Shown piece after piece: positions 7,725 through 12,635 of a stretch of DNA of 64,000 bases. A program made the position numbers and the translations under genes. Position 1 is the first letter of the stretch, and each line of letters begins with the position of its first letter. The stretch is from Escherichia coli (GTDB taxonomy: Bacteria; Pseudomonadota; Gammaproteobacteria; Enterobacterales; Enterobacteriaceae). Location: assembly GCF_003334815.1 (NCBI RefSeq), contig NZ_QOWO01000010.1, one strand, 5' to 3'. The notes under the pieces were generated by a model. That model had not been told where the DNA came from. It saw only the letters and a program-made list of their open reading frames with translations, and searched no databases.

Positions 7725-10151
7725 ATGTCCAAAAATGAACGAATGGTGGGCATCAGCCGCAGAACACTCGTTAAATCTACCGCGATAGGTTCTCTGGCGC
7801 TGGCTGCAGGCGGTTTTTCTTTGCCGTTTACCCTGCGCAATGCAGCAGCAGCGGTACAACAGGCCCGCGAAAAAGTGGTCTGGGGTGCCTGTTCCGTCAA
7901 CTGTGGTAGCCGCTGTGCACTTCGTCTACATGTTAAAGATAATGAAGTGACCTGGGTGGAAACTGACAATACCGGCAGCGATGAGTACGGCAACCATCAG
8001 GTACGCGCCTGTTTGCGCGGTCGCTCCATCCGCCGGCGTATTAATCATCCCGATCGCTTGAATTACCCAATGAAACGCGTGGGCAAACGCGGCGAAGGCA
8101 AATTCGAACGGATTAGCTGGGATGAAGCCCTGGATACTATCGCCAGTAGCCTGAAGAAAACCGTCGAACAATATGGCAATGAGGCTGTATATATTCAGTA
8201 CTCTTCGGGGATCGTTGGCGGCAATATGACCCGCTCTTCGCCATCAGCCTCGGCGGTCAAACGCCTGATGAACTGCTACGGCGGTTCACTCAACCAGTAT
8301 GGCTCCTACAGCACTGCGCAAATTTCCTGTGCCATGCCCTACACCTACGGCAGTAATGATGGCAACAGCACCACGGATATTGAAAACAGCAAGCTGGTCG
8401 TGATGTTTGGTAACAACCCGGCAGAAACCCGCATGAGCGGTGGTGGCATCACTTATCTTCTTGAAAAAGCGCGCGAGAAATCGAACGCCAAAATGATTGT
8501 TATCGATCCGCGATATACCGATACGGCTGCCGGTCGTGAAGACGAATGGCTCCCTATTCGCCCGGGCACCGATGCCGCGCTGGTTGCGGGTATTGCCTGG
8601 GTATTGATTAACGAAAATCTCGTTGATCAACCTTTTCTCGATAAATACTGCGTCGGCTATGACGAAAAAACCTTACCCGCAGATGCACCCAAAAATGGTC
8701 ACTATAAAGCCTATATTCTTGGTGAAGGTGACGATAAAACAGCGAAAACGCCGCAGTGGGCTTCGCAAATTACCGGTATCCCGGAGGACCGTATCATCAA
8801 ACTGGCGCGTGAAATTGGCACAGCAAAACCCGCTTATATCTGCCAGGGCTGGGGGCCACAACGCCAGGCAAACGGCGAACTGACTGCACGCGCTATTGCT
8901 ATGTTACCTATTTTGACGGGCAATGTCGGCATCAGCGGCGGAAATAGTGGCGCGCGTGAATCGACCTATACCATTACCATAGAACGCCTGCCGGTGCTGG
9001 ATAATCCGGTCAAAACGTCAATCTCCTGCTTCAGCTGGACAGATGCTATCGATCATGGTCCGCAAATGACGGCAATCCGCGACGGCGTCCGCGGCAAAGA
9101 TAAACTGGATGTGCCCATTAAGTTCATCTGGAACTACGCGGGAAATACCCTCGTTAATCAGCATTCTGACATCAACAAAACGCATGAAATTCTGCAGGAC
9201 GAATCGAAATGCGAAATGATTGTGGTCATCGAAAACTTTATGACCTCATCGGCAAAATATGCCGACATTCTGCTGCCAGACCTGATGACCGTTGAGCAGG
9301 AAGATATTATTCCTAACGACTACGCCGGTAACATGGGATATCTCATTTTCCTCCAGCCTGTCACCAGCGAAAAATTCGAACGCAAACCGATTTACTGGAT
9401 CCTGAGTGAAGTCGCGAAACGTCTTGGACCTGACGTCTATCAAAAGTTCACAGAAGGTCGCACGCAGGAACAATGGTTACAACATCTGTACGCCAAAATG
9501 CTTGCCAAAGATCCGGCGTTACCGTCTTACGACGAACTGAAAAAAATGGGTATCTATAAGCGTAAAGATCCCAATGGCCATTTTGTCGCCTACAAAGCAT
9601 TTCGTGACGACCCCGAGGCAAATCCACTTAAAACGCCTTCCGGTAAGATTGAAATTTATTCCAGCAGGCTGGCGGAAATTGCCCGTACCTGGGAACTGGA
9701 AAAAGATGAAGTGATAAGCCCATTGCCAGTTTATGCCTCAACCTTTGAAGGCTGGAACTCCCCTGAACGTAGAACCTTCCCACTGCAACTGTTTGGTTTC
9801 CATTACAAATCCCGTACTCACTCGACCTACGGCAATATTGATCTCCTGAAGGCTGCCTGCCGTCAGGAGGTGTGGATCAACCCTATAGATGCGCAGAAAC
9901 GTGGGATTGCCAACGGCGATATGGTGCGGGTGTTTAACCATCGTGGCGAAGTTCGGCTACCAGCCAAAGTAACACCACGTATTCTCCCTGGAGTTAGCGC
10001 TATGGGCCAGGGAGCCTGGCACGAGGCCAATATGTCTGGCGATAAAATCGACCATGGCGGCTGTGTGAATACGCTAACCACTCTGCGCCCTTCACCACTG
10101 GCGAAGGGAAACCCGCAGCACACTAATCTGGTCGAGATCGAAAAAATATAA
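7725..10151 (+). CDS. ynfE: Tat-exported molybdopterin oxidoreductase catalytic subunit, DmsA family (putative selenate reductase)
   Basis: 808-aa ORF with a twin-arginine signal (SRRTLVK), an N-terminal Cys cluster (CSVNCGSRC) and molybdopterin-oxidoreductase motifs. First gene of the ynfEFGH-dmsD operon. Confidence 0.95.
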   Translation: MSKNERMVGISRRTLVKSTAIGSLALAAGGFSLPFTLRNAAAAVQQAREKVVWGACSVNCGSRCALRLHVKDNEVTWVETDNTGSDEYGNHQVRACLRGRSIRRRINHPDRLNYPMKRVGKRGEGKFERISWDEALDTIASSLKKTVEQYGNEAVYIQYSSGIVGGNMTRSSPSASAVKRLMNCYGGSLNQYGSYSTAQISCAMPYTYGSNDGNSTTDIENSKLVVMFGNNPAETRMSGGGITYLLEKAREKSNAKMIVIDPRYTDTAAGREDEWLPIRPGTDAALVAGIAWVLINENLVDQPFLDKYCVGYDEKTLPADAPKNGHYKAYILGEGDDKTAKTPQWASQITGIPEDRIIKLAREIGTAKPAYICQGWGPQRQANGELTARAIAMLPILTGNVGISGGNSGARESTYTITIERLPVLDNPVKTSISCFSWTDAIDHGPQMTAIRDGVRGKDKLDVPIKFIWNYAGNTLVNQHSDINKTHEILQDESKCEMIVVIENFMTSSAKYADILLPDLMTVEQEDIIPNDYAGNMGYLIFLQPVTSEKFERKPIYWILSEVAKRLGPDVYQKFTEGRTQEQWLQHLYAKMLAKDPALPSYDELKKMGIYKRKDPNGHFVAYKAFRDDPEANPLKTPSGKIEIYSSRLAEIARTWELEKDEVISPLPVYASTFEGWNSPERRTFPLQLFGFHYKSRTHSTYGNIDLLKAACRQEVWINPIDAQKRGIANGDMVRVFNHRGEVRLPAKVTPRILPGVSAMGQGAWHEANMSGDKIDHGGCVNTLTTLRPSPLAKGNPQHTNLVEIEKI

Positions 10152-12635: not shown

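Follow-up and report, generated by a model that had tools for sequence, protein, structure and literature searches.

Two catalytic subunits of the DmsA family, encoded side by side upstream of a single set of electron-transfer, anchor and chaperone genes, raise two questions: how old is the duplication, and do the two subunits have distinct roles? We examined both in a stretch of 64,000 nt of Escherichia coli DNA (hereafter the window), for which the first-pass annotation had proposed an ancient tandem duplication of a catalytic subunit within one operon.

The ynfEFGH-dmsD operon and its relatives

We identify the locus with high confidence as the E. coli ynfEFGH-dmsD operon, coding for a membrane-bound molybdoenzyme of the DmsABC type that faces the periplasm and can use either of two catalytic subunits. 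Over 8.2 kb the sequence matches, at 100% identity, E. coli chromosomes annotated with ynfE, ynfF, ynfG, ynfH and dmsD, and the family models score above their cut-offs, so that the gene names assigned earlier are right. The following features make up the locus:

7725-10151, + strand: ynfE, Tat-exported Mo-bisMGD catalytic subunit, 808 aa (open reading frame, family model, Pfam, annotation)
10152-10211, + strand: ynfE-ynfF spacer, 60 nt, with the ynfF ribosome-binding region (sequence)
10212-12635, + strand: ynfF, second Tat-exported Mo-bisMGD catalytic subunit, 807 aa (RefSeq start, family model)
12646-13263, + strand: ynfG, four-cluster ferredoxin-type electron-transfer subunit, 205 aa (TIGR02951, Cys groups)
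13265-14119, + strand: ynfH, membrane anchor and quinol-oxidising subunit, 284 aa (Pfam DmsC, PF04976)
14162-14776, + strand: dmsD, Tat proofreading chaperone (NF008632, annotation)

The two adjacent genes of 808 aa noted earlier are + strand open reading frames at 7725-10151 and 10209-12635; for ynfF, RefSeq uses the second of two in-frame ATGs (10212 instead of 10209), giving 807 aa. The gaps between the five genes are short (60, 10, 1 and 42 nt), and only one ynfG/ynfH/dmsD set lies downstream of the two A genes, as had been described. An Rfam scan of the entire window gave no family at the gathering threshold, and matches to a terminator consensus fell mostly inside genes and were uninformative.

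YnfG scores 264.8 bits against TIGR02951 (cut-off 214.1), has 16 cysteines in four groups and lacks a signal peptide of its own. YnfH matches Pfam DmsC (PF04976) over its full length (E = 4.7e-128) and has eight hydrophobic segments (19-mers); the extended open reading frame containing it (13025-14116) had no NCBIfam match. DmsD, a Tat chaperone of the NarJ/TorD family, scores 347 bits against NF008632 (cut-off 162) and is known to bind the signal peptides of DmsA, YnfE and YnfF (PMC5203670).

In locus, gene order, lengths and names, nothing of substance differs from ynfEFGH-dmsD (ynfEFGHI) of E. coli K-12 and Salmonella, an operon reportedly treated by Lubitz and Weiner in 2003, Guymer et al. 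in 2009 and Fujita et al. in 2021. It is an ordinary operon that has been described before, and confirming the locus adds nothing new to biology. It is a textbook case of paralogous respiratory molybdoenzymes, with two catalytic subunits on one electron-transfer module and a chaperone, DmsD, that also serves DmsA, which is encoded elsewhere. The modest value of the analysis lies in the dating and order of the duplications, a clade-specific loop deletion and the instability of the two-gene state.

E. coli DmsABC has the same three-subunit architecture, Tat signal, FS0 cysteine spacing, serine ligand motif and chaperone (DmsD), with identities to the Ynf proteins of 66-67% (A), 94% (B) and 57% (C), but its operon contains only one A gene and lacks a chaperone gene, and in the literature its substrates are S- and N-oxides, in contrast to selenate and tellurate for Ynf. 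In the selenate reductase SrnABCD of Enterobacter cloacae, SrnA is a YnfE orthologue (86% identity reported) that works with E. coli YnfG, YnfH and DmsD (PMC12724226); the system has one catalytic gene and no ynfF. The Enterobacter loci that we found have the same E-G-H-D layout. Operons in Rahnella and Mesocricetibacter likewise have two A subunits upstream of one B-C-chaperone set, but the second A is of the DmsA clade and not the YnfF clade; we found no description of this arrangement in the literature on these reductases.

Catalytic subunits and a proposed electron path

YnfE and YnfF are identical at 567 of 801 aligned positions (71%, E = 0, BLASTP), far above the 40% below which a duplication had been considered refuted, and the same value has been published (PMC5203670). 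The three identical peptides quoted in the first-pass annotation as collinear stretches all occur in both proteins (YnfE/YnfF positions 91/94, 117/120 and 369/368), and the longest identical run is 22 residues. The relevant protein features are:

nt 7755-7775, + strand: Tat motif SRRTLVK, YnfE residues 11-17
nt 7890-8012, + strand: FS0 cysteine group C-x3-C-x3-C-x31-C, YnfE residues 56-96
YnfE residues 49-108, 111-566 and 687-800: Pfam domains PF04879, PF00384 and PF01568
nt 10254-10274, + strand: Tat motif SRRSLMK, YnfF residues 15-21
nt 10386-10508, + strand: FS0 cysteine group C-x3-C-x3-C-x31-C, YnfF residues 59-99

Both proteins thus carry the twin-arginine signal attributed to them, each motif being followed by a hydrophobic stretch; the Pfam TAT_signal match is weak (E = 0.14) and limited to YnfF. 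Published experiments demonstrate both the export and the binding by DmsD (PMC5203670). The C-x2-C-x3-C cluster that had been read in both proteins is absent from both, and the real Fe-S motif is C-x3-C-x3-C-x31-C, as in DmsA. The expected molybdopterin-binding domains are present in both, namely Molybdop_Fe4S4, Molybdopterin and Molydop_binding, in that order (PF04879, PF00384 and PF01568, all E < 1e-11). YnfE scores 1796 bits on NF041885 (cut-off 1675) and 1401 on TIGR02166 (cut-off 777.7), and YnfF scores 1774 bits on NF041884 (cut-off 1650) and 1285 on TIGR02166; each falls under the cut-off of the other's own model.

A search of solved structures returned none for DmsA, YnfE or YnfF, the closest being PDB 2vpw and 1eu1, and the active-site mapping therefore rests on an alignment of about 30% identity with Rhodobacter DorA (1eu1), in which YnfF Ser195 aligns with DorA Ser147. 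Ser147 of DorA is a molybdenum ligand, and the predicted ligands are Ser196 in YnfE and Ser195 in YnfF. Both lie in a YS(T/S)AQI motif that is common to YnfE, YnfF and DmsA (Ser205), so that on comparison with DmsA both the serine ligand motif and the FS0 cysteine spacing are conserved. DorA has the serine-ligated Mo-bisMGD site but is soluble and lacks FS0. The entry 2vpw, deposited as 'thiosulfate reductase', we take to be the polysulfide reductase PsrABC of Thermus thermophilus, which likewise consists of an FS0-bearing A subunit, a four-cluster B subunit and an anchor C; the molybdenum ligand of PsrA is a cysteine. At the sequence level both PsrABC and DorA are only remote relatives (E = 1e-47 to 1e-76). 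In an active-site loop, the YnfF clade has a deletion of five residues at the Pro177/Tyr178 junction (about nt 10740-10745), which is invariant in 13/13 YnfF-clade sequences; deletion and loop sequence are kept across five genera.

The operon is known as a Tat-exported, DmsD-dependent, FNR-activated and NarL-repressed selenate/tellurate reductase with YnfE as main catalytic subunit. In Salmonella the selenate reductase is ynfEFGH-dmsD, with YnfE as main catalytic subunit and a minor contribution of YnfF, an assignment made without biochemical assay according to the same source (PMC5203670). In E. coli, deletion of ynfEF abolishes selenate reduction, and the activity comes back with SrnA, a single YnfE orthologue working with E. 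coli YnfG, YnfH and DmsD (PMC12724226). The menaquinone donor and the in vivo reduction of selenate and tellurate also come from the literature, where the evidence for selenate/tellurate (or S-oxide) reductase activity of YnfE and YnfF is genetic only; the literature that we found describes neither the purification of YnfEGH or YnfFGH nor a direct assay of enzyme activity. It agrees with the earlier remark that the substrate specificities are only partly resolved.

Under anaerobiosis without nitrate, a single promoter upstream of ynfE, under activation by FNR and repression by NarL, would drive all five genes. YnfE and YnfF, their twin-arginine signal peptides bound by DmsD, would each be loaded in the cytoplasm with Mo-bisMGD and a single [4Fe-4S] cluster (FS0). 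Tat would then export each A subunit, probably together with the signal-less, four-cluster YnfG, and each would dock on the eight-helix anchor YnfH, so that the cell could build two isoenzymes, YnfE-G-H and YnfF-G-H, on one electron-transfer module. Menaquinol would donate electrons to YnfH, from which they would pass via the clusters of YnfG and then FS0 to Mo and the substrate, namely selenate or tellurate, with some S-oxide activity for YnfF. That both A subunits share one module, as had been suggested, is consistent with the order of the genes and with published work. We infer that E-G-H and F-G-H exist as two trimers and not as one mixed complex, and that YnfE and YnfF have distinct substrate ranges.

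Regulation and roles of YnfE and YnfF

Two candidate regulatory features lie at the starts of the two catalytic genes:

7612-7625, + strand: FNR-like site TTGATatggATTAA, matching 9/10 positions of the consensus, some 100 nt ahead of the ynfE start
10193-10211, + strand: stretch complementary to the RyhB core, AAGCAATaaGTGAGtAATG, in the ynfE-ynfF spacer (duplex energy)

The FNR-like site has one mismatch to TTGATNNNNATCAA. Such sites number 6 in the window against 2.8 expected, a count that is not significant, and the same half-sites recur at the orthologous spot ahead of the ynfE-type genes of Escherichia, Citrobacter, Salmonella (as a TTGAC variant), Enterobacter asburiae, Phytobacter and Kosakonia. 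The site is probably the activator site of the operon promoter. PMC6561318 and PMC10845959, citing Xu et al. 2009, state that FNR activates and NarL represses the ynf promoter. A sigma-70 consensus scan found 6 promoter-like sites where 8.0 were expected (chance level), with none upstream of ynfE, as is to be expected of an FNR-dependent promoter.

The ynfF start region forms a duplex with K-12 RyhB of -35.6 kcal/mol (z = -2.66, 300 shuffles). The z value is -4.33 for dmsA and +0.63 for the ynfE leader, placing the complementarity at ynfF and dmsA but not at ynfE. This agrees with a report in which RyhB represses both dmsA and a ynfF(-60..+24)-lacZ fusion and which does not list ynfE (PMC4666370). 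Since RyhB targets ynfF and dmsA but not ynfE, the two catalytic genes differ in translational control, and this difference together with that in the active-site loop suggests that their roles are in part distinct and that they are not simply redundant.

Both genes also appear to have been maintained for long. The pS of ynfE and ynfF is 0.70 (dS about 2, saturated) and dN/dS is 0.10, and this dN/dS at saturated synonymous sites indicates that both have long been under purifying selection. It thus speaks against YnfF being a purely redundant spare of YnfE, with the same substrate and role, kept by drift or dosage and now being lost, a reading that we consider unlikely. Such a spare would nevertheless fit the small addition of YnfF to selenate reduction in Salmonella (PMC5203670), the presence of an E-type gene only in Enterobacter, Phytobacter, Kosakonia and Rouxiella, and the inactivation of ynfF in 546/5426 complete E. 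coli genomes (about 10%), all by one shared double-deletion allele, which is probably the ST131 allele. In addition, ynfF of the E. albertii representative is a pseudogene through a TGG-to-TAG change; selenocysteine recoding of this stop was ruled out because the TAG stands in place of a tryptophan codon and is remote from the Mo ligand. A redundant spare does not account for the invariant loop sequence and deletion of the YnfF clade in five genera, the RyhB control found at ynfF but not ynfE, or those Citrobacter that retained F and lost E.

Other Citrobacter have a single E/F chimera, and the possession of both genes is unstable among Enterobacteriaceae and also inside E. coli, the window carrying intact ynfE and ynfF unlike about 10% of E. 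coli genomes. The pseudogenes in these genomes and in E. albertii argue that the role of ynfF is dispensable in some niches. This instability matters where ynfF is used as a marker, or where ynfF expression data come from strains with the deletion allele.

Beyond partly distinct roles, we raise as a tentative proposal, doubtful but somewhat more plausible to us than a redundant spare, that YnfF is a separately specialised reductase and not a minor selenate-reductase isoenzyme, with its own physiological substrate, a shortened active-site loop and iron regulation by RyhB together with dmsA. If so, the repeated losses (the probable ST131 allele, E. albertii and Enterobacter) would track differences in substrate niche, and so would the repeated sole retention of F in some Citrobacter. 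The loop deletion of the YnfF clade offers a concrete mutagenesis target for YnfE versus YnfF specificity.

Age and origin of the duplication

The proposed ancient duplication is borne out by the saturated synonymous sites, the lack of any conversion tract, and the phylogeny. In a tree of YnfE, YnfF and DmsA, built by neighbour-joining only, orthologues cluster by paralogue rather than by species. The YnfE clade (bootstraps 100/94) and the YnfF clade (100; Escherichia, Salmonella, Citrobacter, Pseudocitrobacter and Kluyvera) are sisters, joined with a bootstrap of 89 and with DmsA outside. YnfE and YnfF also share two insertions that are absent from DmsA and from all other DmsA-clade and outgroup sequences. 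These data place the split from dmsA first and that of ynfE and ynfF later. The tandem origin of the duplication at its present locus is less secure, given that in Kluyvera a ynfF-type gene, accompanied by B and C genes of its own, adjoins dmsABC and that in Rahnella the partner of the ynfE-type gene is of the dmsA type.

The Rahnella arrangement (five species, and Mesocricetibacter), with a YnfE-type and then a DmsA-type gene before one B-C-D set, could also mean that YnfF derives from a dmsA-like gene that stood second in an ancestral E-dmsA-B-C-D operon, and that the grouping of YnfF with YnfE is an artefact. The YnfF signal peptide is indeed closer to that of DmsA than to that of YnfE, and RyhB targets ynfF and dmsA alike. 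We nonetheless hold this descent to be improbable in view of the bootstrap of the joint clade, the two insertions, and the higher identity of YnfF to YnfE (71%) than to DmsA (66.5%). A recently converted, dmsA-derived 5' end of ynfF, which would explain the signal peptide and the RyhB control, has no support at the DNA level. The DmsA-like signal peptide of YnfF looks like a retained ancestral sequence and the n-region of YnfE like the divergent one.

Recent or ongoing gene conversion between the copies, in place of an old duplication, could draw on their tandem layout, the identical peptide runs and the E/F recombination seen in the chimeric Citrobacter genes, but it is ruled out with very little residual doubt by a longest exact nucleotide match of only 17 nt, by a pS of 0.59-0.87 in all 50-codon windows, including those coding for identical peptides, and by the grouping of orthologues by paralogue. 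The same holds for the electron-transfer subunit: YnfG and DmsB are 94.1% identical, and gene conversion behind this identity is ruled out by a saturated pS of 0.74 between ynfG and dmsB with a dN/dS of 0.011, values which instead indicate purifying selection.

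The ynfEFGH-dmsD locus and its products

The locus is the ynfEFGH-dmsD operon, which has been described before, and is therefore not novel. Window 7000-15200 was matched in 5421 of 5426 complete E. coli genomes, several chromosomes being 100% identical to it, and the matched genomes carry ynfE, ynfF, ynfG, ynfH and dmsD in their annotation, flanked by ynfC, ynfD and clcB. The genes in the window are:

7725-10151, + strand: ynfE, 808-codon ORF
10209-12635, + strand: ynfF, 808-codon ORF (the RefSeq start is the second ATG, 10212, giving 807 aa)
12646-13263: ynfG, DmsB-type, passing TIGR02951
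13265-14119: ynfH, DmsC-type, with a full-length Pfam DmsC match
14162-14776: dmsD, passing NF008632

The first-pass annotation had described two adjacent 808-aa genes sharing collinear identical stretches and twin-arginine signals, followed by DmsB-like, DmsC-like and dmsD genes, and its interpretation is supported except for the cysteine spacing. All three peptides that it quoted are collinear in YnfE and YnfF, the twin-arginine motifs are SRRTLVK and SRRSLMK, respectively, and the Pfam Fe4S4, molybdopterin and MGD-binding domains are present in both proteins. BLASTP gave 567 identities over 801 aligned residues (71%, E = 0), above the 40% line drawn in that annotation. The C-x2-C-x3-C cluster that it reported was found in neither protein by motif search; the real Fe-S motif is C-x3-C-x3-C-x31-C, with identical spacing in DmsA. 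YnfE and YnfF each pass the curated cut-off of their own NCBIfam model but not that of the paralogue's. The 16 Cys of YnfG fall into four groups, and the protein lacks a signal peptide; YnfH has eight hydrophobic segments. The 42-nt gap between ynfH and dmsD holds a GC-rich perfect hairpin, GTGCGGGGCAACCCGCAC (14127-14144), not followed by a T-run on the + strand, which might have a role in dmsD expression or mRNA stability. DmsA, encoded elsewhere, also needs dmsD.

Age of the duplication and relation to DmsABC

Comparison of ynfE with ynfF gave pS 0.70 (dS about 2) and dN/dS 0.10, with a longest identical nucleotide run of 17 nt. No recent-conversion tract was found between the two genes, pS being at least 0.59 in every 50-codon window; recent conversion as the source of the identical peptides is thereby rejected, and these peptides have therefore been kept by selection on an old duplicate.

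K-12 DmsA is 67.3% identical to YnfE and 66.5% to YnfF, and DmsC is 57.4% identical to YnfH, whereas DmsB is 94.1% identical to YnfG. Gene conversion, which could have produced this discordantly high value, is rejected because synonymous sites between ynfG (12646-13263) and dmsB (extracted locus L002, 3415-4032) are saturated (pS 0.74); together with a dN/dS of 0.011, this identifies strong purifying selection. The constraint on YnfG/DmsB is far tighter than that on the catalytic (67%) or anchor (57%) subunits.

A scan of species-representative genomes with YnfF as query yielded 56 loci, which were annotated against the E. coli subunits, and a neighbour-joining tree was built from 70 catalytic subunits (806 columns, 100 bootstraps). 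In this tree the YnfF clade (bootstrap 100) contains only Escherichia, Salmonella, Citrobacter, Pseudocitrobacter and Kluyvera-like genomes. The YnfE clade has a bootstrap of 100 in Enterobacterales, including Rahnella and Rouxiella, and of 94 when a Pasteurellaceae member is added. The two clades are sisters (bootstrap 89), and enterobacterial DmsA forms its own clade (bootstrap 91). Two insertions, PD at YnfE 569-570 and two residues near YnfE 770, occur in all YnfE and YnfF sequences examined and in none from the DmsA clade or outgroup, and they lend independent support to YnfE and YnfF as a derived pair. The sister clades and these shared insertions therefore indicate that dmsA split first and ynfE/ynfF later, both events being old. 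The ancient duplication of the catalytic subunit proposed in the first-pass annotation is thus borne out by the saturated synonymous sites, the lack of a conversion tract and the sister clades. The ynfE/ynfF split may either predate Enterobacteriaceae, with later ynfF losses, or ynfF may be a younger, faster-evolving copy.

Operon architectures and lability of the pair

The order ynfE-ynfF-ynfG-ynfH-dmsD is found in Escherichia, Salmonella, one Citrobacter amalonaticus and Pseudocitrobacter. Enterobacter, Phytobacter, Kosakonia and Rouxiella have ynfE only, which for Enterobacter agrees with the published srnABCD of E. cloacae with its single catalytic gene (PMC12724226), and some Citrobacter have ynfF only. 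Two C. amalonaticus-like loci (L044 2075-5422 and L027 2050-5489) cleanly lack ynfE; their ynfD leads into the conserved promoter region and then into ynfF, whose signal peptide is F-type. In these loci ynfC and ynfD are separated by some 3.3 kb of unassigned DNA.

In five Rahnella species (L015, L016, L035, L038 and L051) and Mesocricetibacter intestinalis (L041), a YnfE-clade gene is followed by a DmsA-clade gene and then by single Fe-S, anchor and DmsD genes. The shared-module layout thus occurs with a different second catalytic subunit, an arrangement of which we met no description in the literature consulted. Kluyvera cryocrescens (L031 787-8718) and the related gut isolate Enterobacteriaceae MGYG-HGUT-00110 (L034 1970-9899) carry, directly after dmsABC, a ynfF-type gene with its own Fe-S and anchor genes; this second anchor shares about 80% identity with E. 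coli DmsC and is not YnfH-like, and the second Fe-S subunit is DmsB-like.

Three Citrobacter species have a single catalytic gene that is YnfE-type from residue 1 to about 50 and YnfF-type thereafter, informative sites turning near residue 52:

L008 5923-8397: chimeric catalytic gene, Citrobacter sp. wls619
L009 3739-6213: chimeric catalytic gene, C. youngae CCUG 30791
L010 5923-8397: chimeric catalytic gene, Citrobacter sp. Cu233

These genes retain a YnfE-type signal peptide and intact upstream speG-ynfC-ynfD synteny, and judging from the sequence pattern the chimeras look like products of unequal crossing-over, by which the ynfE-ynfF tandem was reduced to one gene. As assembled, ynfF of E. 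albertii NBRC 107761 has an in-frame TAG in place of TGG (L004 1505-1507; Trp of AIAWVLI), and a frameshift splits ynfE of Escherichia sp. MOD1-EC7003 (L003 3522-5937); both are species representatives. Of the 5426 E. coli genomes, 5112 cover at least 80% of ynfE and 4740 at least 80% of ynfF. A ynfF deletion allele without nt 715-1294 and 2069-2342 (L060 4001-5570, E. coli GN03507) adjoins an intact ynfE and is annotated as a frameshifted pseudogene; with the junction probes L060:4675-4754 and L060:4655-4774, its first junction was found in 546/5426 complete genomes. Strain names with this junction include SE15, O25:H4 and '131', which we take to suggest an allele of the ST131 clone. IS-mediated deletions also account for other partial alleles.

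Function, regulation and possible specialisation of YnfE and YnfF

In Salmonella and E. coli the selenate reductase is the product of this operon, with YnfE as the main catalytic subunit and little contribution from YnfF, and DmsD binds the signal peptides of DmsA, YnfE and YnfF (PMC5203670). Deletion of ynfEF in E. coli abolishes selenate reduction, and a single YnfE orthologue, working with the YnfG, YnfH and DmsD of E. coli, restores it; menaquinone is the electron donor (PMC12724226). Tellurate reduction is also attributed to ynfEF in cited work. The most likely working model, in which we infer the alternative-trimer step, is that one shared electron-transfer module would serve two heterotrimers, YnfE-G-H and YnfF-G-H.

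Two reports describe the ynfE promoter as activated by FNR and repressed by NarL (PMC6561318, PMC10845959). An FNR-like site, TTGATatggATTAA, lies upstream of ynfE at 7612-7625; alone it does not reach significance over the 64 kb, but several genera keep its half-sites at the orthologous position, even where ynfE has been lost. Downstream of it (window 7660-7668), a TTAGC pentamer is invariant and a GTA(g/a)ac(t/a) element conserved in all aligned genera; they may be a -10 region or a NarL-site footprint.

A solved-structure search returned no entry for DmsA, YnfE or YnfF, and Rhodobacter DorA (PDB 1eu1) was the active-site reference. The Ser of YSTAQ (YnfF Ser195, YnfE Ser196, DmsA Ser205) aligns with DorA Ser147. 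All 13 of 13 YnfF-clade sequences have the invariant segment HVLYGTGVDGGNITNSNVP-YRLMN, in which five residues present in YnfE and DmsA are deleted. The affected loop lies between the counterparts of DorA Tyr114 and of the Mo ligand Ser147, probably in active-site funnel territory. The 60-nt ynfE-ynfF spacer has complementarity to the RyhB core at 10193-10211, a stretch that covers the ribosome-binding site and start codon of ynfF. Compared with shuffled sequences, duplex energies with RyhB were significantly better in ynfF (z = -2.7) and in dmsA (z = -4.3), and not in ynfE, ynfG, ynfH or dmsD. This pairing matches the published repression of ynfF (region -60 to +24) and dmsA by RyhB, based on ribosome profiling and reporters (PMC4666370). 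YnfE has a signal-peptide n-region unlike that of YnfF or DmsA. The loop deletion, the RyhB pairing and the n-region difference favour, short of proof, partial specialisation over pure redundancy, and the first two offer handles for testing what YnfF does beyond YnfE.
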